51,414 nucleotides of DNA, from contig DAHVXI010000055.1 of the NCBI GenBank assembly GCA_027356795.1, forward strand, positions 1-51,414. The letters are read 5' to 3'. Shown here piece after piece: positions 3,578 to 49,370 of this stretch. Each line of letters starts with the position of its first letter. Within the stretch, counting starts at the first letter, position 1. A program made the position numbers and the translations under genes. The notes beneath the pieces were generated by a model, which worked only from the letters and a program-made list of their open reading frames with translations, did not search any database and had not been told where the DNA came from. The stretch is from Chloroflexota bacterium. GTDB lineage: Bacteria > Chloroflexota > UBA6077.

Positions 3578-3712
3578 TCCTTTCCCTCTGGGAGAGGGAG
3601 ATTCGAGCCCTCACCCCGACCCTCTCCTCGAGAGGAAGTAGCTGCACACTGAGAACTCAGAACTCAGAACCTGGTGGGCGGGATGCCCGCGCTCCCGGCA
3701 GCACTCAGAACC
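3578..3712. repeat. CCCTCACCCCGACCCTCTCC...GGGAGAGGG palindromic element (family B) plus AGAACTC heptamers
   Basis: ttccctctgggagagggag...gccctcaccccgaccctctcc followed by gagaactcagaactcagaacc. Confidence 0.75.
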
Positions 3713-15946: not shown

Positions 15947-18900
15947 CTACAGGGTTCGGCTTCCCGCTGTTGTCGCTTGCTCCCGCGCACCATGCACAGC
16001 CTGGGCCTCTTGCCGCAGCTCCTCCAGCAGATCCTGAAGCAGCGGCATCCAGCCGTCGCCCCGACCGCGCTGAAGCCGGATCTGGTTGGGGAGGACCCTC
16101 AGCCGAGAGCCGTGATGGCGCTGCAGCCTTCCCCGCACCGTGAGGGGTATCCCCTCCAGCTTCACCAGGATCTCTCCCTCCAGGGTGGAGATGGACTTGA
16201 TCCCGATGCGGGACGCCAGCAGCTTGACGTTCAACAGGTAGAAGAGGTTCTGGGCTTCCACGGGCAGCGGGCCGAAGCGATCCTGCACCTCCTCCAGCAG
16301 CCCGCCCAGCTCCTCCTCCTTCGCCAGGGCTGCCAGCCGCTGGTAGAGGCTGAGCCTCGCGGCATCGTCCACCACGTACTCCTCCGGCAGGTGGGCCGGC
16401 AGCGGCAGATCGACGCTCACCTGCGGCTCCACCGGCGCGGACTGCTTGCCCTGGAGCTCGGCCACAGCCTCGGCCAGCAGCCGGGTGTACAGGTCGAACC
16501 CCACGGCGTTGACCTGTCCGTGCTGCTCCACCCCCAGCAGGTTGCCGGCACCTCGGATCTCCAGGTCCTTCATGGCGATCCGGAAGCCGGATCCGAGCTC
16601 GGTGTTCTCGAAGATGGTCTTCAGCCGCTTTTCGGCCGTTTCGGTCAGCTGCTTGCTCCGGTTGTACAAGAAGTAGCCGTAGGCGCGGTTGGCCCCTCGC
16701 CCCACACGGCCTCGCAGCTGATACAGCTGGGCTAGGCCGAAGCGGTCCGCCTGGTTCACCACTATGGTGTTCACGTTGGGGATGTCCAGACCCGACTCGA
16801 TGATGGTGGTGCACACCAGGACGTCGTGCTGTCCCTCGGCGAACTCCATCATCACCCTCTCCAGCTGCTCCTCCGGCATCTGGCCGTGGCCCACCACGAT
16901 GCGTGCCTCGGGCACCAGCCTCTGGATGTGACTCGCCACGAAGTGGATGTTGTGCACCCGGTTGTGCACGAGGTAAACCTGTCCGCCCCGGTCCATCTCC
17001 CGCAGGATTGCCTCCCGCACCAGGCTGTCGCTGTGCTCCGCCACGAAGGTGCGGATCGGTAGCCGGTCCTCGGGCGGCGTCTCCATGGTGCTCATGTCCC
17101 GGATCCCGGACAGCGCCATGTGGAGGGTCCGGGGGATAGGGGTGGCGCTCAGAGTCAGCACGTCCACTCGCTGGCGCAGCTGCTTCAGCCGCTCCTTGTG
17201 CATCACCCCGAAGCGCTGCTCCTCGTCCACGATCACCAGCCCCAGCTCTTTGAACTGGACGTCCTTCTGGATCAGCCGGTGGGTGCCGATGCATATGTCG
17301 ACGGCGCCCGCCCGCAGCCCCTCCACCACCTGCCTCTGCTCCCTATCGGAGCGGAAGCGGGAGAGCACCTCCACGTTGACCGGGAAGGGTCCCAGCCGCT
17401 CCCGGAAGGTGTTGTGGTGCTGCTGGGCCAGTACCGTGGTCGGCACGAGCACCGCCACCTGCTTGCCGTCCATCACCGCCTTGAAAGCAGCCCGCAGCGC
17501 CACCTCCGTCTTTCCGTAGCCGACGTCGCCGCAGATCAGCCGGTCCATGGGTCGGGCCGTCTCCATGTCGGCCTTCACCTCCTGGATCGCCTGAAGCTGG
17601 TCCGGCGTCTCCAGGTAGGGGAAGGAGGACTCCAGCTCCCCCTGCCAGGGCGAGTCCGGCGGGAAGGCGTAGCCCGACTGGGACTGGCGGGCCGAGTAGA
17701 TCGCCAGCAGCTCCTTGGCCACGTTCCGCACGGAGTTCCTGACCCGCTCCTTGGCCCGAGTCCAGTCGGAGGTGCCCAGCCTGCTGAGGGCCGGCCTCTC
17801 CTCGCCGGCCCCAACGTAGCGGGAGACCCGGTCCACCTGGTCGACGGGGACGTACAGCTTGTCGGCCTCAGCGTACTCCAGCAGCAGGTACTCCCGTTCG
17901 CCCGCCTCGGTGGACATCTTCTGGAGGCCCAGGAAGCGGCCGATGCCGTGCTCCACGTGGACGGCCATCTCCCCCTCCACCAGGTCGCTCAAGAAGGCTT
18001 CCCGCGGGGCGGCACGGCGGCGCACCACACGGTGGACCTTGGTCCAGCCGAAGATCTCGGCGTCCCCCAGCACCACGACCCCCAGCGCCTCGCTGGACCA
18101 GCCGTGGCGCAGGGAACCCTGGACCAGGTGGAGACCCGGCGCCGGTGTCTCCGAGATCGCCTGCTCCGGCACGATGGAGCGGTCCTTCTCCTCGGCCAGC
18201 AGGTCGGCCAGCCTCTCGCTCTGCTGGCTGACCAAGACAACCAGGTGCTGCGTGCTGCGTGCTGAGTGCTGGGTGCTGAGTGCTGGGTGCTGAGCAGCGG
18301 ACTTCTCACCCCACCCCTCTCCCCTCCCCGCTGCGGGGAGGGGCCGGGGGAGAGGTCTGCTCCCCGTCTCCCCGTCTCCCCGCCTCCCGCTCACCCCGTC
18401 GGCGAGGGCCAGAGCCTCGTCCAGGACGAGCGGCAGCCTGCCGCCGTAGCTGGGCGGCGCGGTGAAGGGGAGCTCCAGGGCCTCCGGGTCGTAACGCATC
18501 TCCATCAGAGGCCAACCGCCGGCCTGGGCGGAGGCGTAGAGGCTCCCCCACTCGTGGAGCGCCGGCGGCAAGCCGCTCGGGATCTCTGCCCGCTCCACGG
18601 CCTGCCACTGCAGGTGGGTTGCCTGCTCCAGCAGATCGTCCCCCACGGCCGCGATCTGGGCGGGATCGTCCAGCACGAGCAGCCCCCCTTCGGGCAGGTA
18701 GTCGAGGAGGGTGCTGTGGCCCAGGAACCCCCGGTAGAAGCCCAGGGAGGCGCAGGCCTGCCCCTCCACCAGCAGGTCCAGCTCCCTGGCGAGGGTCTCC
18801 TGCGAGGCGGGCGAGCAGGCGGACAGATCCAGCGCCCGCAGCCGCGATCGGGTCTCCTCGTCGGCGGGAGGGAGCACCTCGTGGGGTGGGGTGATCTCCA

Positions 18901-19708
18901 CCTCCTCCAGGCGATCCACCGAGCGCTGGGTGGCCGGATCGAAGGCGCGAATCGACTCGATCTCGTCTCCGAACAGCTCGATGCGGAAGGGAGTGGGGCT
19001 GCCCGGCGGGTATACGTCCAGGATGCCGCCCCGGCGGCTGAAGCTGCCCGGCGTCTCCACGACGCTCGCCGGTTCGTAGCCCATCTCCACCCACCGCTTC
19101 AGGGTAGCCTGGAGCGGGAGCCGCCGCCCGGCCCGCAGCCTTTGCACCGCCCGGCTCAGCTCCTCGGGGGACATCACCCGCTCCATCATCGCCCGCCCGC
19201 CGGCGACCACCACCAGGCCGGTGCTGGGTTCCAGCTCCCTCTCCCCCTGGGAGAGGGTCGGGGTGAGGGCTCGTGCGAACTGCCGAGTGCTGGGTGCTGA
19301 GTGCTGGGTGCCGGCGGCTGGTGGCTTATGGCCGATAGCTGACGGCTGATAGCTGATAGCTGATAGCTCGCGCATGGCGAACAGTCGTGCCGCCGTGGCG
19401 GTTGGGTCGGCGGGCATGCGCTCGTAGGGCAGGGAATCGGGCTCGGGGAACAGCAGCACCCGATCGGGATCGGCCGACCAGAGGGCGATCTGCTCCTGCA
19501 GCTCCCGGGCTCGGCCCGGCCGGGCCGTCACCACCAGGATGGGCACGCCCAGCCGCCGCTGGAGGGCGGCCAGCAGGTAGGGCTTGGCGCCCTCGGCTAC
19601 GGCCAGGGCAGCAGGATCCCTCCGGCCCAGCCGCTCCAACAGGGATGCAAGGCCGGGCCATCGGTCTATCAGGTCGAGCAGACCGTGCAGACGAAGTGTA
19701 GTTTCCAT
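15947..19708 (-). CDS. mfd: Transcription-repair coupling factor carrying two in-frame repeat insertions
   Basis: UvrB-homology region RGGILDVYP, RID HVEHGIG, GDVGYGKTE, DEEQRFG, ATPIPRT, QLRGRVGR and TRG motif DLEIRGAG. Confidence 0.96.
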   Translation of the reverse strand: METTLRLHGLLDLIDRWPGLASLLERLGRRDPAALAVAEGAKPYLLAALQRRLGVPILVVTARPGRARELQEQIALWSADPDRVLLFPEPDSLPYERMPADPTATAARLFAMRELSAISYQPSAIGHKPPAAGTQHSAPSTRQFARALTPTLSQGERELEPSTGLVVVAGGRAMMERVMSPEELSRAVQRLRAGRRLPLQATLKRWVEMGYEPASVVETPGSFSRRGGILDVYPPGSPTPFRIELFGDEIESIRAFDPATQRSVDRLEEVEITPPHEVLPPADEETRSRLRALDLSACSPASQETLARELDLLVEGQACASLGFYRGFLGHSTLLDYLPEGGLLVLDDPAQIAAVGDDLLEQATHLQWQAVERAEIPSGLPPALHEWGSLYASAQAGGWPLMEMRYDPEALELPFTAPPSYGGRLPLVLDEALALADGVSGRRGDGETGSRPLPRPLPAAGRGEGWGEKSAAQHPALSTQHSARSTQHLVVLVSQQSERLADLLAEEKDRSIVPEQAISETPAPGLHLVQGSLRHGWSSEALGVVVLGDAEIFGWTKVHRVVRRRAAPREAFLSDLVEGEMAVHVEHGIGRFLGLQKMSTEAGEREYLLLEYAEADKLYVPVDQVDRVSRYVGAGEERPALSRLGTSDWTRAKERVRNSVRNVAKELLAIYSARQSQSGYAFPPDSPWQGELESSFPYLETPDQLQAIQEVKADMETARPMDRLICGDVGYGKTEVALRAAFKAVMDGKQVAVLVPTTVLAQQHHNTFRERLGPFPVNVEVLSRFRSDREQRQVVEGLRAGAVDICIGTHRLIQKDVQFKELGLVIVDEEQRFGVMHKERLKQLRQRVDVLTLSATPIPRTLHMALSGIRDMSTMETPPEDRLPIRTFVAEHSDSLVREAILREMDRGGQVYLVHNRVHNIHFVASHIQRLVPEARIVVGHGQMPEEQLERVMMEFAEGQHDVLVCTTIIESGLDIPNVNTIVVNQADRFGLAQLYQLRGRVGRGANRAYGYFLYNRSKQLTETAEKRLKTIFENTELGSGFRIAMKDLEIRGAGNLLGVEQHGQVNAVGFDLYTRLLAEAVAELQGKQSAPVEPQVSVDLPLPAHLPEEYVVDDAARLSLYQRLAALAKEEELGGLLEEVQDRFGPLPVEAQNLFYLLNVKLLASRIGIKSISTLEGEILVKLEGIPLTVRGRLQRHHGSRLRVLPNQIRLQRGRGDGWMPLLQDLLEELRQEAQAVHGAREQATTAGSRTL
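18244..18400. repeat. Composite in-frame insert in mfd: GTGCTGA heptamers, family B-like palindrome and CTCCCCGT octamers
   Basis: Encodes GVSGRRGDGETGSRPLPRPLPAAGRGEGWGEKSAAQHPALSTQHSARSTQH. Confidence 0.85.
19235..19368. repeat. Composite in-frame insert in mfd: family B palindrome and GCTGATA/GTGCTGA heptamers
   Basis: Encodes ELSAISYQPSAIGHKPPAAGTQHSAPSTRQFARALTPTLSQGERE. Bases 19235-19270 match intergenic 22906-22941 at 35/36 nt. Confidence 0.88.
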
Positions 19709-19710
19709 CG

Positions 19711-19780
19711 ATCAGCTATCAGTTCTCAGCAGTCAGCAGTCAGCCACCGTGTTGAGGCTGACGGCTGACTGCTGACTGCT
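19711..19780. repeat. Inverted heptamer hairpin filling the pth-mfd spacer
   Basis: tcagctatcagttctcagcagtcagcagtcagcc...ggctgacggctgactgctgactgct. Confidence 0.8.
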
Positions 19781-19784
19781 CCCC

Positions 19785-20342
19785 CTACGCGTTGAACTCG
19801 TTCATGGCTGCTTCCATCCCCTCGGCCAGGGTAGCCTCGACGGCCTCCACCGCCCGGTTCAGTGCCTCCTCGATGAGGGGACGCTCCTCGGCGGAGAATC
19901 TGCCCAGGACGTGATCCACGGCCTCTATCTCCGCCGGCCGGCCGATGCCGATCCGAAGGCGGGGGACGTCGCTCGTTCCCAGCATCCCGATGATGGATTG
20001 CAGCCCCCGGTGGCCGCCCGCGCTCCCCCTCTCCCTGAGCCGGATCTTTCCCACCGGCAGGTCGCGCTCGTCGTAGACCACCAGCAGGTCCCTGGGAGAG
20101 AGCTTGTAGAAACGGACGAGGCATACCACCGCCTCGCCGCTCAGATTCATGAAAGTCTGGGGTTTGGCCAGACACACCCGGTGGCCGGCCAGGGTCCCTA
20201 GGGCCGTGAGGGCGTTGCACTGCTTCTTGGTAACGTCGACGCCGCAGCGCCGCGCCAGCCGGTCCAGCACCATGAACCCCACGTTGTGCCGGGTGTTGGC
20301 GTACCTGGAGCCGGGGTTGCCCAGTCCCACCACGAGCTTCAC
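19785..20342 (-). CDS. pth: Peptidyl-tRNA hydrolase
   Basis: VVGLGNPG..Y..TRHNVGF, KPQTFMNLSG, GSAGGHRG and RLRIGIGRP motifs. Confidence 0.95.
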   Translation of the reverse strand: MKLVVGLGNPGSRYANTRHNVGFMVLDRLARRCGVDVTKKQCNALTALGTLAGHRVCLAKPQTFMNLSGEAVVCLVRFYKLSPRDLLVVYDERDLPVGKIRLRERGSAGGHRGLQSIIGMLGTSDVPRLRIGIGRPAEIEAVDHVLGRFSAEERPLIEEALNRAVEAVEATLAEGMEAAMNEFNA

Positions 20343-20446
20343 GTTCCACTCCAAACACTCATAGGGGCTGGTCGCCGTGACCAGCCCCTGCGATCTCGCA
20401 GAAGCCCCCCTACTCTAGGCCGGGGCGCTATCGATATTGTACCAAA

Positions 20447-21847
20447 TCAGTAGGCGTTGCCGCCCGTAAAGACGGTGAAGATGGTGCGCAGCAGGATCTT
20501 GATGTCGAAGAAGGGCGACCAGTTCTCCACGTAGTAGAGGTCGTACTTGGTCCGCTCCTCGATGGAGGTGTTGCCCCGCAGGCCGTTCACCTGGGCCCAG
20601 CCGGTCATCCCGGCCCTCTCGTTGTGCCGCTCGGCGTAGCGCGGGATGATCTGGCTGAACTGCTCCACGAAGTAGGGCCGCTCCGGCCGGGGCCCCACCA
20701 GGCTCATCTCGCCCAGCAGAACGTTGATCAGCTGCGGCATCTCGTCAAAGGAGTAGCGCCGCATGAACCGGCCCAAACCGGTGGTGCGCTGGTCGCCGGG
20801 CTTGGCCCAGATGGGGCCGGACTCCTTCTCGGCGTCGGGCACCATGGAGCGGAACTTCAGCAGCTCGAAGGGCTTGCCGTCCAGCCCCACCCGGACCTGA
20901 CTGAAGAACACCGGCCCTTCGCGGGAGGTCAGCTTGATGGCCAGGGCGGCCAGCATCAGGATGGGGGAGAGCACCACCAGGCTGGCGGCGCTGATGGTGA
21001 GGTCCATGGCGCGTTTGATGGCCTGGTGCCACCACCGCAGCGAGACGTCCCGGATCCGCAGCAGCGGCAGTCCACCCAACTCGGCCACCGCCACCTCGCT
21101 AGACATGATCTGGAAGACGTCCGGGAACACCTTCACGTTGATCCGCAGCTTCCCGCAGGCGTGCACCAGGTGCAGGATCTGCTTGTGGGACAGGGAGGGC
21201 GAGGCGAACACCACCTCGTCGATGCGGTACTCGTTCACCACCTGGGCCAGGCAGGAGGTGGGACCCAGCACCGGCAGGTCGCCGGGCGGGATGACCGTGG
21301 GGTCGTCCTCCAGGTATCCGACGACGGTGTAGCCCAGCCCCGGCCAGTTGGAGATCCGGTCGTAGATGATGAGCCCCGGCTCGTCCGCCCCCACGATCAG
21401 CAGCCGCTCCTGGTTGATCCCCAGGCTCCGCAGGATGGACACCAGACCGTTCAGGATCAGCCGAGAGATCCAGAGCAGCACCACGGAGATCCCCCAGGCG
21501 TAGATCAGGACCCAGCGCGGGTAGTCGATCCCCTTGAACAGGATGGCGCTCACCCCCAGGGCCAGGAGGGTTCCCGCGGTGGTGGCCAGCAGGACCGAGT
21601 AGAACAGGTCTATTCGGGAAACCCCTCGCTGGGGGCTGTACAGGCGGGCGGCGAACAGGGCCGCCACCACGCCGAGAACCATCAGCAGAGCCAGTCCCTG
21701 GTAGGCGTAGAGCGGAGGCATGGTGATGCCGGCCCGGGGCTCCATCTCCAATCTCATGCGGTAGGCCAGGGCGAAGGAGGCGACCTGCAACAGGACGTCG
21801 GTCATCAGGAGGAAGAGACTGAAGATCAACTCGAAGAGCCGCTTCAT
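20447..21847 (-). CDS. Undecaprenyl-phosphate hexose phosphotransferase (WcaJ/WbaP-like)
   Basis: N-terminal TMs plus KFRSM, DEMPQLINV..GEMSLVGPRPE, GMTGWAQVNG and DLYYVENWS motifs. Confidence 0.92.
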   Translation of the reverse strand: MKRLFELIFSLFLLMTDVLLQVASFALAYRMRLEMEPRAGITMPPLYAYQGLALLMVLGVVAALFAARLYSPQRGVSRIDLFYSVLLATTAGTLLALGVSAILFKGIDYPRWVLIYAWGISVVLLWISRLILNGLVSILRSLGINQERLLIVGADEPGLIIYDRISNWPGLGYTVVGYLEDDPTVIPPGDLPVLGPTSCLAQVVNEYRIDEVVFASPSLSHKQILHLVHACGKLRINVKVFPDVFQIMSSEVAVAELGGLPLLRIRDVSLRWWHQAIKRAMDLTISAASLVVLSPILMLAALAIKLTSREGPVFFSQVRVGLDGKPFELLKFRSMVPDAEKESGPIWAKPGDQRTTGLGRFMRRYSFDEMPQLINVLLGEMSLVGPRPERPYFVEQFSQIIPRYAERHNERAGMTGWAQVNGLRGNTSIEERTKYDLYYVENWSPFFDIKILLRTIFTVFTGGNAY

Positions 21848-22740
21848 CAGGAGACCCTCCTTGCCTCCGGCGGGCGCAGGTAGTTCACGGCGAGGGAGAA
21901 GGCGCACTTGGCCCAGATGGCCGCGACGATCAGGAATCCCAGGAGGCCGTTGGTGCCCGCCGCGTAGTGCTTCTTATAGAAGAGGTGCATGGCCCGGTAG
22001 AACTCGACGATGGTCTTCCCGGGGTGCCGCCTGCTGCTGGCCCCCTTGTGGTGCAGCACCACCACCGCCGGGTTGTAGAGGACTCTCCACCCCTTCGCCT
22101 TGATCCGATATGCCCAATCCAGGTCCTCGCCGTACATGAAGAAAGACTCGTCCAGGAAGCCCACCTGTCGGGTCGCCGCAGCCCGAACCATCATGAAGGC
22201 CCCGACCACGGAGTCTACCTCTGCCGGTTGGTTGGGGTCCAGATAGGTCAGGTTGTACCGCCCGAAGCGACGGCTGTTGGGGAACAGGTTGCTCAGCCCC
22301 AGCATCCGGTAGAAGGACACCTCGGGGGTGGGGAAGCTGCGCCGGCAGGCCAGGTCCAGACTTCCGTTCTCCCGAACCAGCTTGGTGCCCGCTATCCCCG
22401 CCTCTGGGTGGGCATCCATGAAATCCACCATCTCCTTCAACGCGCGGGGGGGCAATTCCGTATCGGGATTGAGCAGCAGCAGGTACTCCCCCTGGCACCG
22501 GCGAAGGGCCAGGTTGTTGGCGAATGCGTAACCCCGGTTGGCGTCGCACTGGATCAGCTGAGCCTGAGGGAACTCCGCGGACACCATGGCGGCGCTGCCG
22601 TCCACGGAGGCGTTGTCCACCACGAACAGCTCCATGGCCGGGGCCTCCTGGCTCCTCGTTACCGATTGGAGGCAGGCCCGAAGCAGGTCGCGGGTGTCGA
22701 AGTTGACGATGACGATGGAGAGCCTAGGGGTCGTAGGCAA
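21847..22740 (-). CDS. Family 2 glycosyltransferase (WbbL-like)
   Basis: SIVIVNF, VVDNASVDGS, LLLNPD and FFMYGEDLDW motifs. TTG start inferred. Confidence 0.9.
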   Translation of the reverse strand: MPTTPRLSIVIVNFDTRDLLRACLQSVTRSQEAPAMELFVVDNASVDGSAAMVSAEFPQAQLIQCDANRGYAFANNLALRRCQGEYLLLLNPDTELPPRALKEMVDFMDAHPEAGIAGTKLVRENGSLDLACRRSFPTPEVSFYRMLGLSNLFPNSRRFGRYNLTYLDPNQPAEVDSVVGAFMMVRAAATRQVGFLDESFFMYGEDLDWAYRIKAKGWRVLYNPAVVVLHHKGASSRRHPGKTIVEFYRAMHLFYKKHYAAGTNGLLGFLIVAAIWAKCAFSLAVNYLRPPEARRVS

Positions 22741-22866
22741 GCCTGTCCTCGATAGCACGTCCACATTCCATGGGACACAGGCCGTCTCAAAGGAGCACTC
22801 CGGCAGAACGGCGTCGAGCGCGTAAAGCAGAACTACACCACAGCCACGATGGATGAAGCTGAGGCG

Positions 22867-22895
22867 ATTATAGTGGTGGCCGCAGAAGAGGTCAA
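22867..22895 (-). promoter_or_regulatory. Sigma70-type promoter for the GT2-phosphotransferase genes
   Basis: TTGACC-N17-TATAAT. Confidence 0.7.
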
Positions 22896-22905
22896 ACTCT
22901 GCCTT

Positions 22906-22941
22906 CTCCCTCTCCCCTTGGGAGAGGGTCGGGGTGAGGGC
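22906..22941. repeat. Family B palindromic element
   Basis: ctccctctccccttgggagagggtcggggtgagggc. Confidence 0.85.
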
Positions 22942-22964
22942 TGTAGCAGGGGTACCGGCGCTGA

Positions 22965-23948
22965 CTACGATTTTCGCGTCTGTCGCAGCCTCCACAGGAT
23001 CCCCACCGGGTAGCCGGCCATCTTGGCCAGATCCCCGACCATCCGGATTGCGGGCACCCAGGCTATGGCCTCCGCCTTTTCCAGAGGCGATAGCCCGCTC
23101 AGCCGTGGTGCCAGTCTCTGGTAGGGGGTCTTCAGGTGCAGGGCCGCACCCACGGCCAGGGGCAGCAGGAGGATCGGCCTCTTGCGGCTCGCCTGAAGCA
23201 GGGCCAGGCCCGCCTCGTAGCCGGCGTAGCGGATGGCGTGCCGCCAGGGCCAGAGGCCTGCTTTGCCGTCTCCTCGAGCGTACCGGAAGTACTGAGTACA
23301 GAAGGCGCGCAGGCTGCCCCGAGGGCGGAACTTGGCCACCGCCTCGGGGGCCCAGGCGAAGACGCAGCCGGACCGGCGCAGGGCCAGGTCGAACACCACG
23401 TCCTCGCAGTAGTCCAGCCATTCCGGGTAGCCTCCGGCCCGGCGCCAGGCCTCTTTGGTGAAGGCGACCGACCGGCTGGAGGGGAGGAAGCGGGCGGGGT
23501 TGATCTCCTCCCGTGTGGGAAGGACCGTGGCGCCCATGGCCAGCTCGAAGACGTTCTTCGGATCGGGCTCGAAGAAGCCGCTCACCACGTCGACCCGGCC
23601 GTGCCGTCTCTGAAAGGGTGTGACCAGCTGCTCCAGCCAGGTCGGCTTGAAGCGGACGCCGGCGTCGGTCACCGCTATCACGTCGCCCGTGGCCTGCCCC
23701 ACCGCGGCATTCCGGCCCTCCGAGATGTTGGAGCCGGGCAGCTGGAGAACCTGGAGGCTGAGGCGGTCGCCGGCTGTGGCCCGGATCCGCTCCACGGTGG
23801 CGTCGGTGGAGCCTCCGTCGGAGATGATCACCTCGTCCGGTCGCCGGGTTTGAGCCGCCAGCGACTCGACGAGATCGACCACGCTCGCCTCTTCGTTCAG
23901 GACGGTGGCGATGACGGTAACCTTCAGGGGTCGGGTTGCTTCAGCCAT
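22965..23948 (-). CDS. Family 2 glycosyltransferase
   Basis: ATVLNEE, DGGSTD, GRN, TDAG and CED motifs; ATG 23948 has a GAGG SD. Confidence 0.88.
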   Translation of the reverse strand: MAEATRPLKVTVIATVLNEEASVVDLVESLAAQTRRPDEVIISDGGSTDATVERIRATAGDRLSLQVLQLPGSNISEGRNAAVGQATGDVIAVTDAGVRFKPTWLEQLVTPFQRRHGRVDVVSGFFEPDPKNVFELAMGATVLPTREEINPARFLPSSRSVAFTKEAWRRAGGYPEWLDYCEDVVFDLALRRSGCVFAWAPEAVAKFRPRGSLRAFCTQYFRYARGDGKAGLWPWRHAIRYAGYEAGLALLQASRKRPILLLPLAVGAALHLKTPYQRLAPRLSGLSPLEKAEAIAWVPAIRMVGDLAKMAGYPVGILWRLRQTRKS

Positions 23949-24158
23949 GGTACCTCGCAGCAACGACTTCAGCCGTTCGGTCCCTCGCCGCGAGGAGCAG
24001 GACGAACGACCGACGTCTCTGCTACAGCCTTCTTCCTCCGCCGTACGCAGTCTGTCAGTCGGTGGCGATCGGCGGACTGCAGCTCCGCTTCGCTCAGCAC
24101 GACGGGTCCGGAGCCGCGCCAAGGTATGGAGCCGGCGTGTCGTTGCCGCAGCGCAGAG

Positions 24159-24187
24159 ATGATAGGTTCTGCTTCCAGTTGCGTCAA
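24159..24187 (-). promoter_or_regulatory. Sigma70-type promoter
   Basis: TTGACG-N17-TATCAT. Confidence 0.6.
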
Positions 24188-24273
24188 GCGGCGCCTTATG
24201 ATAGCGTTTCCCCAACAGAGCTTCGCGGGCCTGAACGGCTTTGCGCGGCTCTGCCTCGACCGGGGAGGTGGCG

Positions 24274-24648
24274 ATGCGCTGCGCCCATTGTGGGACCCGT
24301 TTTGACCTGGAGGACAACTACTGCCGGAATTGCGGAACGGCGCTGAATCGTCGGGAGCTGCCCACCGTCGTCTCCCGTTCTCTCCTGCCGGTGCCCTGGG
24401 CCATGGCGAGGGGCCCGGTCGTGCGGGGCGTGGTCGCGCTGGCGGTCGGCACGGTGATGGAGCTGGCGAGGAGGGAGGTCTCCCGCCGAGTCATTTCCCA
24501 GGATCCCTCCCAGGCGCTCGCTCTCCTGGCCGCGGGCAAGCCTGTCGAGGCGAAGCGCCGCTTCCCCTGGTCGAAACAACCCCCCAGGGGCGAGTACGAG
24601 GTCACCGAGACGGTGATCCAGCGCACCGTGCGCTTCTTCCGGAAGTAA
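24274..24648 (+). CDS. Zinc-ribbon domain protein with a hydrophobic segment
   Basis: CAHCG...YCRNCG; GGAGGT SD before ATG 24274. Confidence 0.75.
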   Translation: MRCAHCGTRFDLEDNYCRNCGTALNRRELPTVVSRSLLPVPWAMARGPVVRGVVALAVGTVMELARREVSRRVISQDPSQALALLAAGKPVEAKRRFPWSKQPPRGEYEVTETVIQRTVRFFRK

Positions 24649-24651
24649 CCG

Positions 24652-24750
24652 CCTCTCCCTCTGGGAGAGGCCGCCCGAAGGGCGGGTGAGGGCTGCTTCG
24701 ACGCTTGCGACCAAGCCCTCACCCTGACCCTCTCCCAGAGGGAGAGGGGA
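24652..24750. repeat. Inverted pair of family B elements between convergent genes
   Basis: ctctccctctgggagagg...ggtgagggc and gccctcaccctgaccctctcccagagggagagggg. Confidence 0.82.
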
Positions 24751-25347
24751 TCACGAACCTGCCAGCAGTCTCTCCAATACCCTCCGGGCGCAGCGGCCGG
24801 CCTTGCCCCGGTGGCTGATCCGGTCCTTCTCCTCGGGCGCCATCTCTGCCAGGGTGCGCCCTTCGGATGGCACGAAGAAGATGGGATCGAAGCCGAAGCC
24901 GCCCCGCCCCCGGGGCTCCGTCGCCACCTTCCCCTTCAGGATGCCCTGGCAGCGGTGGAGTCCACCTCTCTCGTCCACGATGGCCAGCTCGGCCACGTAC
25001 CGGCAGTCTCGTTTCTCCCAGGGCACCTCCTGCATCTGTCGAAGCAGCAGCCGGTTCTTGGTCTCACCGTCGGGGAGCCCGCCGTATCGGGCCGAGTACA
25101 CCCCCGGCGCGCCGTCCAGCGCCTCCACCTCCATCCCGGAGTCGTCGGCCAGGGAGAGGAGGCCGCTGGCCTCGTGGAAGGCCCGGGCCTTGAGGGCGGC
25201 GTTCTCGGCGAAGGTGGCGCCAGTCTCCTGCACCTCCAGCTTCAGCCCCAGGGATGCAGGGGTCACCAGCTCCAGGGGCAGGCCGGCGAGGATCTGGGTG
25301 AACTCGCGGACCTTGTCTGGGTTGTTGGTGGAGAGGAGCAGTTTCAA
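24751..25347 (-). CDS. rdgB: Non-canonical purine NTP pyrophosphatase (RdgB/Ham1)
   Basis: STNNPDK, ETGATFAENA..KA, ADDSG, PGVYSARY, GFGFDPIF and SHRG motifs. The TTG start overlaps the upstream stop. Confidence 0.92.
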   Translation of the reverse strand: MKLLLSTNNPDKVREFTQILAGLPLELVTPASLGLKLEVQETGATFAENAALKARAFHEASGLLSLADDSGMEVEALDGAPGVYSARYGGLPDGETKNRLLLRQMQEVPWEKRDCRYVAELAIVDERGGLHRCQGILKGKVATEPRGRGGFGFDPIFFVPSEGRTLAEMAPEEKDRISHRGKAGRCARRVLERLLAGS

Positions 25348-26573
25348 ACGATACCGTCGGCCTTCATCTGGGCCAGTTCCTCGGGGGAGTAGCCCAGGAG
25401 ATCGCAGTAGACCTCCTGGTTGTGGGCTCCCATCTCGGGTCCCGTCGACTCCACCCGTCCGGGGGTCAGGGAGAGCCTCGGCACCACCGAGCACATCTTG
25501 ATCTCCCCCTCCACAGGGTCGTCGACCGAGATGATGTTCTCCCGGGCCTGGTACTGCGGGTCCTGGAACATGTCCTCGACACTGTACAGCAGGCCGTTGG
25601 GGACCTCGTTCGCTTCCAGGATCTCCATGCCCTCTTTGGCCGTGTAGCTGCCGATCCACTCCTGGACCATGGCGTCGGTCTCCTCCCGATGGGCGACCCG
25701 CTGGGCGTTGGAGCAGAAGCGGGGATCGTCGGCCAGCTCCGGGCGGCCCATGGCCCCCATCAGCCGCTTGAACATGGTGTCGTTGGTGCAGGCGACGGCG
25801 ACGTGCCGGCCATCCTTGGTGGTGTAGTGGTTGTGGGGCACGGCGTTCACTGAGCCGGTGCCCAACCGCTCACGGACCAGGCCTATCTTGTGGAAGGCGG
25901 CCGGCACCTCCTCCAGGATCCGGAGCACCGGCTCGTAGAGGGCGATGTCCACGTACTGCCCCCGGCCGGTCTTGTCCCGGTGGTGGAGGGCCATCATGGC
26001 GCCCAGGGCCCCGTACACGCCGGTCAGGTAGTCCGGGATCGAGGCGGTGCCGGGGATGACGGGCGGACGGTCGGGGAAGCCGGCCAGGTTGCTGAGGCCG
26101 CCGTAGGCCGCCGCGATGCGGCCGAACCCCGGCTTGTCCTTGTAGGGACCGAACTGGCCGTAGCCGGTGACCCGCACCATCACCAGCCCCGGGTTGATCT
26201 CCTTCAGCTGCTCGTACCCCAGGTTCCATCGCTCCAGGGTCCCGGGCCGGAAGTTCTCCACCACCACGTCGGAGATCCCGACCAGCTTCTTGACGATCTC
26301 CTGGCCCTTGGACTTCCTCATGTCCAGGGTGATGCACCGCTTGTTGCGGGCCTCTACCCGCCAGATCAGCGCCGTGCCGTTGTGCTGAGGCCAGAACTTG
26401 CGTAGGGAGTCGCCGACACCGGGTAGCTCGACCTTGATGACGTCTGCGCCGAACTCGGCCAGGAGGGTGGCGCAGTGGGGGCCCGCGATGACGGTGGCAA
26501 GATCGATGACACGAACCCCGTCCAAGGGCCGTGCGCCTCGGTCGGAGGGGGACTTCTTTGTCGCGTCGGTCAT
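25344..26573 (-). CDS. Family III CoA-transferase (CaiB/BaiF)
   Basis: GVRVIDL, GADVIKVE, RNKR, DVVVENFRPG and TGYGQ.GPY motifs. Confidence 0.92.
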   Translation of the reverse strand: MTDATKKSPSDRGARPLDGVRVIDLATVIAGPHCATLLAEFGADVIKVELPGVGDSLRKFWPQHNGTALIWRVEARNKRCITLDMRKSKGQEIVKKLVGISDVVVENFRPGTLERWNLGYEQLKEINPGLVMVRVTGYGQFGPYKDKPGFGRIAAAYGGLSNLAGFPDRPPVIPGTASIPDYLTGVYGALGAMMALHHRDKTGRGQYVDIALYEPVLRILEEVPAAFHKIGLVRERLGTGSVNAVPHNHYTTKDGRHVAVACTNDTMFKRLMGAMGRPELADDPRFCSNAQRVAHREETDAMVQEWIGSYTAKEGMEILEANEVPNGLLYSVEDMFQDPQYQARENIISVDDPVEGEIKMCSVVPRLSLTPGRVESTGPEMGAHNQEVYCDLLGYSPEELAQMKADGIV

Positions 26574-34436: not shown

Positions 34437-37400
34437 CTACCAGTTCAGCTTGCTCAGCTTCCGCACGTATGCGAAGGTGTCGCGGTTGACGCCGATGGGA
34501 CCCCAATAGTTGAAGGCGTAGGTGAACTGGGCATAGCCTCCTGCCATCAGCACCGGGTTCAACCGGATGCGGGTGAGGCTGTTGTGGGTGCCGGCCCGTT
34601 TGTTCCCCCGCAGCGGCGACTTGGGGACCGAGATGGTGCGCTCCGGCGCGTGGTAGAAGAAGGCCGTGCCCCTCGGTATGCGGGCGCTCACCACGCACCG
34701 CGTCACCACCACGCCGTTGTCGTTGTACACCTCCACCCAATCGTTGTCCCGCACCCTCAGCGCCTCGGCGTCTCGATCGTTCAGCCAGAATGGCTCCACC
34801 CCTCGGGACAGGGTCAGCATCCGGTGGTTGTCCATGTAGGTGGAGTGGATGTGCCACTTGCCGTGAGGGGTAAGCACGTTGACCAGGAGGGCGCTTCGGT
34901 CCACCTGGCTGTTCTCCATCTCGTTCAGAACCAGCGGGCTCGCCTTGGCCTTGTAGGTGGGCAGCTGCTCCCCGAACTCCAGGTACAGCTGGTGGTCCAG
35001 GTAGAACTGCTGCCGCCCCGTCAGGGTGCGCCAGGGGACCAGCCGGTCCACGTTGAGGGCGAAGCCGGTGTAGGCCCGGCCGTCGTTGACGATCCCCGAC
35101 CAGCAGGGGCTGGTGAGGAAGCGGCGGGGCTGGTCCACCAGGTCGGCGAAGCTGTACCGGACCCCCCGGTACTTCTCGGCCAGATCTGTGAGGGGCAGAC
35201 CCACCTTCGCCTCCTCCTCCTTGAAGGCCCGATAGGCCACCTCTCCGTTGGTCTCCGGGGCCAGCAGCAGGATTGCGTTGGCCGCGTCCACCACCTCCGA
35301 CAGGGAGGGGTATCGCCGCCCGTCCCACTCGACGGTGGGGGACTGGGCAAGCATCTGATCGTACAGATCGTCGACCTTCCAGCGGATCCCGTGGGCGCCG
35401 ATGCCCGCCGCCCGGACCGTCGGACCCAGGGAGATGAAGCGGTTGTAGAGGTTGGCGTAGTCCCGCTCCACCACCGACATCCAGGGCATGGTCTTGCCGG
35501 GGATGGGTGCGCACTCCCCCTTAGCCCACTCCCTGATCTCCGGCTGGGCGATCTCGTCGGGTGTGTCGTGGGCCAGGGGCGTGCACACCAGGTCCTTCAC
35601 CGGATCGGGCAGGTGGGTCTGGGCGAGCTCGGATACCTTCTTGGCGATGGCTTTGAAGATCTCCCAGTCGCTCTTGGACTCCCAACATGGGGGCACCGCC
35701 TCGCCCAGGTTGTGGACGTAGGAGTGGAGGTCGGTGGTGTTCAGGTCGTTCTTCTCGTACCAGGTGGCGGCCGGCAGGACGATGTCGGAGTAGAGGGCGG
35801 AGGTGTCCATCCGGAAGTTGAGGTCCACCACCAGGTCGATCTTCCCCTTGGGGGCCTCGGGCCGCCACACTACCTCCTCGACCTTCCCCTCGGCCTGCTC
35901 CCGGGCCATGGCGTTGGAGTTGGCGTCCAGGTAGTGGCGCATGAAGAACTCGTGGCCCTTGGCGCTGGCCATCAGGGCGTTGCCGCGCCAGATGAACCAG
36001 AGTCGGGGCCAGTTCTCCGGGGCGTCCGGGTCCTGGACCGCGAAGCGCAGCGGCGACGGGGAGACGGGATGACTGGGCGACGGGGAGACGGTTTCCTCTC
36101 GCCCCGTCTCCCCGTCGCTCTGTCGCCCCGTCTGGAGCTGCTGCACCACCCAATCCACGACCTCCTGGTCGGTCTGGGCGCCGGCCGCTGCCGCCTGCTG
36201 CACCAGCTCCAGGGGACTGCGGTCGAACTGGGGGTAGGAGGGCAGCCAGCCCATCTGCACCGCCTTCACCTGCACGTCCATGGTGTGCCCCCTGGCGTAC
36301 CGGCCGCCCGGCGGCACCGGGTGGTAGGCGGTGAAGTCGCCCTCGTAGCGCCACTGATCGCAGTTGACGTAATGGAAGGAAGGGGTGTTCTGCTGCCTGG
36401 GGGGCTTGACCCAGTCCAGGGCGAAGGCCAGGGTGGACCAGGACGCGAAGGGCGCCACCTTCTCCTGGCCGACGTAGTGGTTCATGCCGCCGCCGTTCTT
36501 GCCCTCGCAGCCGCACAGCATCAGGGCCGTCATGGCGGAGCGGTAGATCAGGTTGCTCTGGTACCACTGGTTCACGCCGGCGCCCACGATGATCATCGAC
36601 CGGCCCTCGGTGCGCTCGGCGTTGCCGGCGAACTCCCGGGCGAAGTGGATCACCGTCTGGCCGTCGATGCCGGTGAACTTCTCCTGCCAGGCGGGGGTGA
36701 AGGGGACGTCCTCCTCGTAGCCGGTCGGGTACTCCCCGGGCAACCCCCTGGAGACCCCGAACTGGGCCATCATCAGGTCCAGGACGGTGGCCACCGCCAC
36801 CCGACCCTGCTCCGTCTCCAGGTACTTCACCGGCACGCCCCGGGCCGGAGGCTCGCCGTCGCCGAACTCCGTGATCCGGACCGGCAGGATGGCGTCTTCA
36901 TGGCCCAGCAGCGACAGGGCGGGGTCTATGGGGGAGCCGTCGAGGCCGTCCTCGTGCTGGAGGTTCCAGCCGCCCTTCTCGTGGCCCCAGCGGAAGCCTA
37001 TGCTCCCCCTGGGCATTCGGAGGTCGCCGGAGAGGCGATCGTAGACCAGGAACTTCCAGTCGCCGTTCTCCGCATCCCGGTAGCGGGCCAGGGACTTTGC
37101 GCGGAGGAGCCGATCCGGTCGATAGGTGGCTCTGGCGCTCCAGCCCTCACCCCGACCCTCTCCCATGGGGAGAGGGAATCCGTCCCCACCCGCTCCCTCT
37201 GGGTGAGGGTGTTTGCTGTCTGCCGACCTCTCGGGTCGGAGAGTCACCAGGAAGCTGCAGTCGGTGTAGCGCTTCAGGTAGTCCAGGAAGTAGGGGACCT
37301 GCCGGTCGACGTAGAACTCCTTCAGGATGACGTGGTTCACGGCCATCCAGAAGGCGCCGTCCTGGCCGGCGCTCACCGGCAGCCACCAGTCGGCGTACTT

Positions 37401-38216
37401 GGACACCTGGCTGAAGTCGGGCGATAGCACCACCAGCTTGGTCCCGTTGTGGCGCGCCTCGGCCACGAAGTGGACGTCCGGCGTGCGGGTCATGCTCAGG
37501 TTGGCGCCCATCACCACGATGTACTTGGAGTTGTACCAGTCGGCGCTCTCGCAGACGTCGGTCTGCTCGCCCCACACCTCCGGAAAGGCGTTGGGCAGGT
37601 CGGCGTACCAGTCGTAGAAGCTGAGGACCGTCCCTCCGATCAGGCTGAGGAAGCGGGAGCCGGCGGCGTAGCTGAGCATCGACATGGCCGGGATGGGGGA
37701 GAAGCCCACCACTCTATCCGGGCCGTGGCGCCGGATGGTGTAAATGGTGGAGGCGGCGATCAGCTCCAGCACCTCGTCCCAGTCGGTCCGGCGGAAGCCG
37801 CCCTTGCCTCGGGCACGCTGGAAGCTGGACCGGGCCGCCTCGTCCTCCATGATGGAGGCCCAGGCCTCCACCGGGTCGGCGTGCCGGCTCCTCGCCTGCC
37901 GCCACAGATCCAGCAGAACGCCGCGAGCGTAGGGATACTTCACCCGAAGGGGGCTGTAGATGTACCAGGAGAAGGAGATGCCCCGCTGGCACCCCCTGGG
38001 CTCGTAGGGGGGAAGCCCGTCCCCCAGCTTGGGGTAATCCAGGGCCTGGTTCTCCCAGGTGACGATGCCGTCCTTGACGAAGACGTTCCACGAGCAGCCT
38101 CCGGTGCAGTTCACCCCGTGGGTGCTGCGCACCGTCTTATCGTGCTGCCAGCGGTTCCGATAGAACTCCTCCCAGCTGCGCTCGCCGGGGCTCAGGATGT
38201 CCTTGATCCAGCTCAT
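34437..38216 (-). CDS. narG: Nitrate reductase/nitrite oxidoreductase alpha subunit (Mo-bisPGD, cytoplasmic type) with two in-frame repeat insertions
   Basis: [47 protein letters not shown] and FNYWGPIG motifs; no Tat signal. Confidence 0.93.
36052..36133. repeat. Inverted octamer-repeat hairpin in-frame in narG
   Basis: Five GGMGACGG-type units, a spacer and four CCCCGTCK-type units. Confidence 0.85.
37143..37211. repeat. Family B palindrome in-frame in narG
   Basis: gccctcaccccgaccctctcccatggggagaggga...gggtgagggtg. Confidence 0.88.
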
Positions 38217-39127
38217 CTCCCCCTCCTTCCGACCAGCCGTCGTCGAACGCCCTGGGATCGCCCTCGCTGGCCGACCTGCATCAGCCCCAGGAAGAGGGCG
38301 AAGGCCCCCAGTCCGACGAGGGGGAAGGCGTAGCTTGGGGCCGGTCCCTCCTGGGTGGTGTCGACCTGGGCGAGGAAAGCCGTCACGTCGGCGACCTCCT
38401 GGTCGGTGATGGGGTGCGAGGCGAAGGCCTCGGTCATGCCCGGGTAGGGCGGTGATTTCAGGATGGAGGCCAATCCGGCGACGCCGAACCTGGTGTGGGC
38501 GTGGGTCAGGTCGAGGCCCATGCTGCCGCCGCCCAGGGCCCCTACCCCCGCCACGTCGTGGCAGCCGATGCATGCGGAGCCGCCGTTGGCCGGCCGCTGC
38601 TCGCCGGCTACGAGGAGCCGGCCGGTGGCGGCGTTGCCGGGGGGCAGGACGGAGGCAGCGGCGCCCGCCGCGGCTGCGCCCCCACCCCCGCTCTGGGCCG
38701 CGACGTAGGACAGGATCGCCTCGGCGTCGGCCCTGGACACCCCCACGTTGGGCATCGGCATGCCGAACTCCTTGGCCAACTGGACGGCGGTGGGATCGCC
38801 GCCGGCGATCAGCCTGTCCGGTGCCGTGATGAAGTCCACCAGCCAGTCGTGGGGACGCTGTTCCGCCACCCCCTCGAGGTCAGGTCCGGCCAACTTGCCC
38901 CCGCCGATGGTGTGGCAGCCGGCGCACTTGGCGTCGAAGGTGGCCTTCCCCTTCGTCGAGTCGACGGCGAGGGAGGCGGTCGCCGCACCGGCTTTCTGGG
39001 CGGTAGGGGTGGTGCCCTGTCCAGGGAGGGTCTCCGTCTGCCAGCGGAAGGCCACGACGGAGAGCGTGGCACCGAGGGCGGTGGCCCCGACCAGGAGACC
39101 CAATCCGAGAAGGTGAACCGATCTCAT
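38213..39127 (-). CDS. Membrane-anchored diheme cytochrome c (NarC-like)
   Basis: N-terminal hydrophobic signal, CAGCH and CIGCH heme sites, C-terminal TM, and ATGA overlap with narG. Confidence 0.85.
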
Positions 39128-40600: not shown

Positions 40601-40648
40601 ACCTCTCCCCGGCCCCCTCCCCGACACGGGGAGGGGGCCGGGGAGAGT
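40601..40648. repeat. Family B-like hairpin after the methyltransferase stop
   Basis: cctctccccggccccctccccg-aca-cggggagggggccggggagag; resembles the mfd insert at 18317-18356. Confidence 0.7.
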
Positions 40649-40813
40649 CAAGGGGGTGTATTGGGGAGCCCTCCTTGCCCGCCGGCCCCCTTCCAGGCTA
40701 TTATCAGGCACACTGACAATGTGGATACGAAGGTAATCCACCGGGATCCGATCCCCTGCCGGCGCTGGGAGATGGGTCCGCTCCCGAGAGACGCCGGTAG
40801 TCAGGTATTGTCG

Positions 40814-44577: not shown

Positions 44578-44655
44578 AACCACAAAGACCCTAAGACCCT
44601 AAGACCCTAAGGGGCACCAAGCTCTCCTGGTGGTTCTTCGTGTCCTGGTGTCCTG
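44578..44655. repeat. Inverted 8-9-mer repeat element (ACCACAAAGAC..AAG / CTTCGTGTC)
   Basis: aaccacaaagaccctaagaccctaagaccctaag...cttcgtgtcctggtgtcc; related half at 46240-46274. Confidence 0.65.
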
Positions 44656-49334: not shown

Positions 49335-49370
49335 TCCCCTCTCCCTCTGGGAGAGGGTCAGGGTGAGGGC
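49335..49370. repeat. Family B palindromic element
   Basis: tcccctctccctctgggagagggtcagggtgagggc between copA and copZ. Confidence 0.85.

Follow-up and report, generated by a model that had tools for sequence, protein, structure and literature searches.

How does the gene of a conserved protein come to contain repeat DNA of an intergenic type, and how is such DNA accommodated by the protein? The question is raised by the mfd gene of a Chloroflexota bacterium, which encodes the transcription-repair coupling factor and lies on the reverse strand (15947-19708) of contig DAHVXI010000055.1 (assembly GCA_027356795.1). This 51.4-kb contig, analysed over its whole length of 51,414 nucleotides and referred to below as the window, has a G+C content of about 66% and is about 84% coding. 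Its genes come closest to those of uncultured Chloroflexota, as judged by the more distant Mfd and NarG hits. Within mfd, at 19235-19369, an array of heptamers adjoins a 36-nt hairpin motif, and the composite is translated. The explanation favoured here, to which a probability of roughly 80% may be assigned, is that heptamers prone to slippage, together with a hairpin motif compatible with coding sequence, accumulated in a disordered loop of Mfd, without a function for the protein.

The open reading frame (ORF) encodes an intact, full-length Mfd of 1253 aa, which matches the Mfd chains of the PDB (E 1.8e-241) and in which the Pfam domains UvrB_inter, CarD_TRCF_RID, DEAD, Helicase_C and TRCF, and none other, were found. 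An earlier note, made from the sequence alone, had described a composite in-frame insertion of about 45 aa in the N-terminal region of this protein, corresponding to codons 114-158. Alignment bears this out, since residues 117-165 (49 aa) take the place of 6 residues in E. coli Mfd and 12 in M. smegmatis Mfd; in the former comparison, residues 43-116 and 166-282 of the window protein align with E. coli residues 28-99 and 106-219. In an alignment of 76 rows (the window protein and 75 of 120 listed hits), the linker between the anchors L115 and V167 measures 51 aa in the window against a median of 11, a net gain of about 40 residues over the homologue median. The linker is no longer than 20 aa in 67 of the 76 homologues, and of the 63 more distant rows all but one (62) have 7-15 aa. 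Among the 13 rows of the close clade, 8 have a linker of more than 20 aa, with a different content in each: peptides of heptamers (QHSALST-type, THHSSLI-type), peptides of octamers (GRRGDGETG-type) or the motif in other frames.

The insert is absent from the solved Mfd structures, as judged by comparison with the PDB chains. An AlphaFold2 model of residues 1-640, with a mean pLDDT (predicted local distance difference test score) of 86.8, agrees in fold with such structures (6ac6, E 1.3e-36; 2b2n, target TM-score 0.81) and places the insert between a helix (102-119) and a strand (166-170) of the UvrB-like N-terminal module, a loop that, by the published domain limits, falls late in domain 1a and shortly ahead of the UvrA-binding domain 2. 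In successive 10-residue blocks over aa 121-160 the pLDDT is 51, 44, 40 and 48, with values below 50 over aa 133-157, whereas both flanks reach 88-98; residues 120-165 lack regular secondary structure, three residues excepted. The insert is thus predicted to be an unstructured surface loop outside the folded core.

An intein, an intron or another spliced insert was considered and ruled out: Pfam finds Mfd domains only, and a search of Rfam over 18000-25500 gave no match at gathering score, its weak whalefall-1 and miRNA-like rows reflecting hairpins only. As the frame of the insert is open, removal by splicing is not needed. The miRNA-like rows stem from the spacer between the mfd start and the pth stop (19726-19780), where TCAGCAG (x2.7) and GGCTGAC (x3.6) stand in opposite polarity and form an inverted repeat. 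Promoter- or terminator-like sites were looked for over 19000-19900, and none were seen.

On the coding strand the insert opens with 14 heptamer units in an unbroken 7-nt register (19272-19369, reverse strand). The first seven read GAGCTAT, CAGCTAT, CAGCTAT, CAGCCGT, CAGCTAT, CGGCCAT and AAGCCAC, and the last seven CAGCCGC, CGGCACC, CAGCACT, CAGCACC, CAGCACT, CGGCAGT and TCGCACG. The array passes from units of the CAGCTAT type (SAISYQPSAI, aa 116-125) through degenerate ones (GHKPPAAG) to the CAGCAC(T/C) type (TQHSAPST, aa 134-141), and ends in two decayed units (RQFAR). Both of the heptamer types distinguished in the earlier note are therefore present, although as the two ends of one continuous array and not as separate blocks; the peptides given there (SAISYQPSA, TQHSAPST and, for the motif, ALTPTLSQGERE) agree with the codon table. 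At period 7, 49 of 56 CAGC positions match over 19272-19369, compared to 39 at the best place elsewhere in the window and to a background mean of 16.3 (sd 3.5; 102,632 windows), and tandem repeats are also listed here by Tandem Repeats Finder (TRF). The window holds eight period-7 arrays, five intergenic and three in genes, where 50 shuffles gave a mean of 1.36.

Translation of these units depends on the strand: for both heptamer types, every frame of one strand is interrupted by stop codons and no frame of the other; moreover, three heptamers equal seven codons, so that the same cyclic peptide results from all three phases of the readable strand. Because 7 equals 1 modulo 3, only net changes by three units keep the frame.

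Directly after the array on the coding strand lies the 36-nt motif (19235-19270, forward strand), of which the part 19237-19269 reads CCCTCTCCC-CCT-GGGAGAGGG-TCG-GGGTGAGGG, flanking bases being added on either side. The mfd gene reads its reverse complement, from 19270 to 19235, as aa 147-158 (ALTPTLSQGERE). The published TM_ECO pattern, known earlier as BoxC or the PIT element, is CCCTCNCCC N3-6 GGGNGAGGG N3 GGGNGAGGG (Holder et al. 2015, PMC4666352), and the fit of the Mfd copy to it is exact. Judged by its letters, the 36-mer may be assigned to this intrastrand-triplex motif; the "family B" element of the earlier note is not specific to one lineage and turns out to be a named and published motif, BoxC/PIT/TM_ECO, which is found in many phyla. 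Its hairpin has a 9-bp stem and a 3-nt loop (-9.9 kcal/mol as DNA). The 36 nt make up 12 codons, and five of the six frames are open (one contains a stop), which renders the motif unusually compatible with coding sequence.

A search with the 36-mer returned three matches in the window, where 100 shuffles gave an expectation of 0.00. One of the other two, at 22906-22941 on the forward strand, differs from the Mfd copy by a single mismatch (35/36), as had been claimed. It is also most likely intergenic, as claimed, lying 23 nt past the stop of a glycosyltransferase gene (22965-24317, reverse strand), in a region where the overlapping ORF has a non-coding GC pattern. The remaining match (34/36) lies in narG at 37143-37178, on the reverse strand. 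In total, the 51 kb hold five near-identical copies and two variants, four of the seven being intergenic and three in genes. Given that about 84% of the window is coding, motif copies and heptamer arrays are depleted in genes, yet they are present there.

The history of the insert can be followed in its relatives, designated here by their protein labels, with P0001 for the window. The insert is held by six separate records (the window, P0002, P0003, P0122, P0123 and P0124). When 17 Mfd proteins are placed in a maximum-likelihood tree, the motif and the CAGCTAT units turn up solely in one terminal clade, P0001/P0122/P0002 (support 100/100), while its sisters P0004 and P0008 show the CAGCACY array alone, and P0006 and the outgroups are empty at the site. 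The empty sites for which the earlier note proposed a search in close relatives are accordingly seen at the protein level, as are sites with the array and no motif. In P0005 the same site reads PHPDPLPRGE ... PLPLGEGKGEGE, an independently acquired inverted pair of motifs. Nor is the peptide a conserved structural part of Mfd: the composite of 50 aa occurs in only two close relatives among 21 candidates (longer proteins), in keeping with the short linkers of most homologues.

The order of events is suggested by the arrangement of the parts. A heptamer remnant, CCCAGCACC (the PST of ELEPST; 19220-19228, reverse strand), lies on the far side of the 36-mer, six bases beyond it, and P0008 (..QHSAPSTGLL) and P0004 (..QHSALRTQNPEPRTGPV) possess the CAGCACY array without the 36-mer; these observations together suggest that the motif landed within an older CAGCACY array. 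Some 18 nt without a match elsewhere came with it, and P0004 has three codons (QNP) where the window protein has 18 residues. The gain of the motif at this site is relatively recent, as its distribution over the Mfd tree shows; it is older than the split between the window and P0002 (97% identical), from which the insert differs at 2 of about 45 residues, similar to the gene-wide 3%. Codon 152 (19253-19255) varies as well: TPTLSQ in the window and P0003 corresponds to a perfect 9-nt C-rich arm, and TPTPSQ in P0002, P0122, P0123 and P0124 to a stem mismatch. Judged by the tree, the window lineage would seem to have moved towards the consensus of the motif here.

The near identity of the copies at 19235 and 22906 had been read in the earlier note as a sign of recent mobility, a reading that does not stand up to comparison with other genomes. 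A scan of one genome per species, with a pattern fixed at 28 of 36 positions, listed 129 copies in at least 126 loci with unrelated flanks, in Planctomycetota, Pseudomonadota, Chloroflexota, Myxococcota, Verrucomicrobiota, Cyanobacteria and others; Pseudomonas, Enterobacter, Acinetobacter, Dehalococcoidia and Nostocaceae are among the taxa of the matches listed, and none of the listed loci belongs to the source organism or a close relative. Four of these 129 copies, from Geomonas, an Enterobacteriaceae isolate (twice) and Enterobacter soli, are as close to the Mfd copy (35/36) as is the copy at 22906, which lies 3.6 kb away on the same contig. As only 8 of 36 positions are free in the pattern and copies across phyla are equally similar, identity is no clock. 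The core of the motif is kept constant wherever the motif occurs, and near identity is uninformative on age. The second loop of the listed copies reads TTG in 49, TTA in 41, TCG in 23, TCA in 10 and other triplets in 6. Turnover at the Mfd site is nonetheless real and is evident from other observations, namely the restriction of the motif to one terminal clade, the inverted pair gained independently by P0005, and differences by whole heptamers between near-identical relatives.

Occurrence within genes is not limited to the source genome. Of the 129 copies listed, 29 are flanked to the left and right by 60 or more codons without a stop, and for five of these 29 a Pfam domain either lies on both sides or extends across the copy. 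The clear cases number three, namely a DEAD-box helicase of a Tepidisphaeraceae metagenome-assembled genome (MAG), HypF of a Planctomycetaceae MAG and LarC of a Dehalococcoidia MAG (L066, L070 and L078), and all three read PHP(N/D)PLPxGEG; the other two (L014 and L040) may be read-through of neighbours.

The manner in which the motif enters a site may be approached through E. coli, in which 4520 of 5426 complete genomes have a match. In the ppiC-ilvC spacer (L127, L129, L130) the filled allele comprises 55 nt, made up of the motif with enterobacterial flanks, in place of 14 unrelated nt in empty alleles. At this one locus compared at the nucleotide level, no target-site duplication is present. 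At least 80% of the filled query is covered in 2963 of the 5426 genomes. The comparison argues against a cut-and-paste insertion with target-site duplication. By protein alignment the Mfd site would seem to offer a similar picture of replacement. Such observations fit a templated insertion of patches, whether through a switch of template, through ectopic conversion or through the repair of a structure-induced break; a single-strand transposase specific for hairpins could also be the mover of the motif.

The latter possibility leads to the explanation that comes second, in which the 36-mer is an active non-autonomous mobile element, akin to the repetitive extragenic palindromes (REPs) and their doublets (REPINs) or to miniature transposable elements with inverted repeats (MITEs), served by an enzyme in trans and very recently transposed into mfd. 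This account is fairly unlikely, although several properties of the motif would be expected of such an element: its many dispersed copies with unrelated flanks, inverted pairs that resemble REPINs, a presence that varies among relatives and among E. coli strains (as in the 2963 filled alleles), and an independent gain at the same Mfd site in P0005. The presence of the insertion before P0002 and the window separated speaks against a very recent jump, and identity, being equally high in other phyla, lends it no support. The hallmarks of MITEs are likewise missing, in that at the ppiC-ilvC site the spacer is replaced without target-site duplication and no terminal inverted repeats were seen to bound the unit. 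No transposase-like gene was found among the 39 window ORFs scanned, and 50,697 phage records yielded only three weak matches. The one E. coli plasmid match examined proved to be the ppiC-ilvC segment carried on a plasmid; Holder et al. (PMC4666352) report no association of the motif with transposons, phages or plasmids.

The accretion of repeat DNA in a loop is the preferred explanation of these observations. An array of CAGCNNT heptamers would already have been present in the loop of the clade ancestor, and its length would have changed by whole units, most likely through replication slippage. One copy of BoxC/PIT/TM_ECO would then have entered the array together with unrelated bases and without target-site duplication. 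Intergenic-type repeat DNA has in this way probably built up in a permissive surface loop of Mfd, where it is read through in frame, selection acting as a filter such that the survivors within genes are those that are in frame, stop-free and located in loops. The encoded peptide would serve no purpose in itself and amount to a disordered linker of low complexity. In this account the position in a loop, the differences in length and by whole units, the limits on frame and orientation and the phylogenetic distribution are observed, and slippage, the manner of insertion and neutrality are deduced.

Several points weigh against this reconstruction. The boundaries of the Mfd insertion and the replacement mode assumed for it are drawn from protein alignments and are correspondingly approximate. 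Low pLDDT can reflect a lack of homologous sequences in the alignment and not true disorder, and a frame kept in all six records is expected of a useful segment too. The motif hairpin is no more stable than shuffles of the same composition (z -1.2 and -1.8), while the 159-nt mRNA stretch folds with a z of -2.2 against shuffles. The two relatives with a frameshift, considered below, come from short contigs and could carry assembly errors. Finally, the intergenic copies show a proximity to stop codons which hints at a role of the motif at mRNA 3' ends, in place of mere junk. All four copies of the motif type between genes (24715-24750, 40601-40649, 22906-22941 and 49335-49370) lie 0-23 nt past a stop codon, two abutting TGA and two exactly 23 nt after TAG; a function at the 3' end of the mRNA or a preferred landing place could explain this.

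Those copies not yet described comprise an inverted pair at 24649-24750, which starts directly past the stop codon of a Ham1-family gene and whose reverse-strand member (24715-24750) has 4 mismatches, and a forward copy at 49335-49370, also with 4 mismatches, for which the P-type ATPase gene ends 23 nt upstream. At 40601-40649, right after the stop of a methyltransferase gene, stands a perfect hairpin with a 21-bp stem, of the same family as a hairpin within the second insertion of mfd. Composite patches of repeats occur between genes as well: a degenerate motif pair adjoins ACTCAGA heptamers downstream of a 2-hydroxyacid dehydrogenase gene (3578-3670), and mixed heptamers (ACTGAGT, TCCAGAG, GAGTGCT) follow an M50 peptidase gene (2224-2297). 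An intergenic octamer array at 44581-44611 (AAGACCCT x3.4, 100% matches) is unrelated to the G/C-rich families.

The loop discussed so far is not the only one to have received such DNA. A second composite insertion of mfd (18245-18400, reverse strand; aa about 437-488) begins with an array of octamers (GRRGDGETG), continues with a G/C hairpin of related kind (RPLPRPLPAAGRGEGWGEK) and ends in seven CAGCACN heptamers. It is wholly missing in P0002, and a similar composite occupies this site in P0008; in the AlphaFold2 model residues 441-488 are likewise of low confidence and without regular structure. NarG (34437-38573, reverse strand) reads the strand of the motif opposite to that read by mfd, and its motif stretch falls within aa 447-483, a segment missing in E. 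coli NarG. Among 24 aligned proteins the motif is seen in the window protein only, the loop measuring 4-6 residues in most relatives. The narG gene holds two inserts, of which the first (37125-37235) comprises the motif copy and a partial second copy, and the second (36057-36125) inverted octamer arrays. The earlier statement that both strands yield tolerated peptides is thus upheld in real genes, by Mfd and NarG and also by the inverted pair of P0005 Mfd. Two loops of Mfd and one of NarG are repeated landing places in one clade.

Variation at the two Mfd sites gives rise to a further explanation, by which the heptamer tracts render mfd phase-variable, changes of one or two units switching full-length Mfd off and on and the tracts being kept for that purpose. 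Simple-sequence repeats are a classical basis of phase variation, and a heptanucleotide example exists. P0123 and P0124, 97% identical and members of a 90% cluster, lack exactly SAISYQP at the first site (7 aa, or three heptamers, in frame). At the second they have nine heptamers against seven in the window, which entails a frame shift: their last 80 residues correspond to frame 2 of the window mfd, and they end at residue 570. These unit counts were made at the protein level and checked against frame 2 of the window. Either the tracts gain and lose whole units within a very short time, or P0123 and P0124 carry assembly errors. Changes by three units would, in a phase-variable gene, restore or keep Mfd, and a BoxC motif nested in the tract could promote further instability. 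If this were true, a transcription-repair coupling factor that influences mutation rates would be phase-variable in this lineage. Such a switch is improbable, however, as it is documented by two records only, which have identical proteins and derive from contigs of 2776 and 3632 nt, and for which repeat-induced errors of assembly or sequencing are a simple alternative. In addition, the units are impure (T, C or G at the last base), which lowers slippage, the change at the first site is in frame, and Mfd is normal in relatives that lack the tracts (P0006 and the outgroups).

Still less probable is an adaptive role for the insert as a functional linker, for example as a new segment for interaction or regulation. 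The retention of the frame in six records, and the expansion of both variable Mfd sites in many members of the clade, are compatible with this proposal. A functional segment would not be expected to differ by lineage as this one does, the site holding heptamers, octamers, the motif in one of three frames or orientations, or nothing; the same repeat DNA also stands in intergenic spacers, the segment is predicted to be unstructured, and its divergence from P0002 is about that of the gene as a whole. It is barely credible that the peptide belongs to the old structure of Mfd, or that the insert is an artefact of assembly: apart from the open frame nothing speaks for it, the former being contradicted by its absence from solved structures and from the 67 homologues with short linkers, and the latter by its presence in six separate records.

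The accretion of heptamers and motif in a loop has implications beyond this gene. BoxC/PIT/TM_ECO is among the most widely conserved short DNA motifs of bacteria, and has remained for thirty years without an accepted function or mechanism of spread. Copies in genes are helpful in this respect, as protein alignments date each gain and provide exact empty sites, and the orientations and phases that persist can be told from the reading frame. Loops of essential-type proteins have here been lengthened by 40-50 residues without breakage, by a stop-poor motif and heptamers. Since the peptides of the insert are not domains, this matters for annotation, and is relevant to the reading of low-complexity inserts in proteins from metagenome-assembled genomes.

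When compared with known systems, the 36-mer shares with BoxC/PIT/TM_ECO the arrangement of three 9-nt blocks, the first C-rich and the other two G-rich, separated by two loops of 3 nt, of which the second is TCG here. It also shares the occurrence in multiple copies on both strands, inverted pairs, a conserved core, unrelated flanks, variation among close strains and the lack of a linked transposase. Holder et al. (2015, PMC4666352) count 23 copies in E. coli K-12, described there as always intergenic, and 3610 in 262 proteobacterial genomes, with high numbers of G/C-rich triplex motifs in cyanobacteria; the single strand forms a purine-motif triplex in vitro, which was not detectably formed in vivo, and local variability between strains is raised at TM_ECO loci. 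An exclusively intergenic location in E. coli is also given by Kaplan et al. (2016, PMC5100583). The window departs from this account in its host, a Chloroflexota bacterium in contrast to the proteobacterial genomes counted, and in the three of seven copies that lie in genes and are read in both orientations. The location within genes is taken to concern the context of the copies and not the family to which their sequence belongs. A search of the literature gave no account of BoxC/TM copies within ORFs; the original BoxC papers and the supplementary tables of Holder et al. could contain such cases.

Rickettsia palindromic elements (RPEs) offer the closest parallel in behaviour, being palindromic repeats that are tolerated in frame in housekeeping genes and also occur between genes (PMC10969869, PMC2229807). 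In the case of mfd, too, a conserved gene has received a repeat in frame which its orthologues lack, and is otherwise intact. By their description in these sources, RPEs are set apart by a size of 105-150 bp, their restriction to Rickettsia and a family-specific peptide, whereas the Mfd motif has 36 nt, is found across phyla, is read in more than one frame and in either orientation, and lies here within an array of simple-sequence repeats. By its size, its host and its fit to BoxC, and with no comparison to RPE sequences made, it is judged not to belong to an RPE family or to be related to one in sequence.

The heptamers have counterparts of their own. Comparable heptanucleotide repeats are the short tandemly repeated repetitive (STRR) sequences of cyanobacteria. 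The TAACTGA repeats of Beggiatoaceae, cyanobacteria and Bacteroidetes (MacGregor 2015, PMC4679880) are equally tandem, 7 nt long and mostly intergenic, with 7-nt indels between strains and stop codons on one strand; their unit is one base from TAGCTGA of the window, and the translatable strand reads LSVISYQ there and LSAISYQ here. The units here, TAGCTGA and CAGCACY, differ, as does the phylum, and where the account of the TAACTGA repeats places a few sets in small hypothetical ORFs, those of mfd lie in a conserved essential-type gene and are joined to a BoxC motif.

REP/REPIN sequences and MITEs are likewise short, G+C-rich hairpin repeats that are dispersed and partly arranged in inverted doublets, and some copies of ERIC and of the 107-bp form of Correia are fused in frame in genes (PMC2229807, PMC10969869). 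The motif differs from REP/REPIN and MITE sequences in the lack of bounding inverted repeats, of a target-site duplication (at ppiC-ilvC) and of a RAYT-type gene in the window, and in being conserved across phyla and not at the level of the species. Taken together, the insert of mfd combines a known behaviour, the acquisition of repeat DNA by conserved genes, with a known motif for which a location inside genes was not found in print, and is best regarded as an instructive curiosity and not as a new system.

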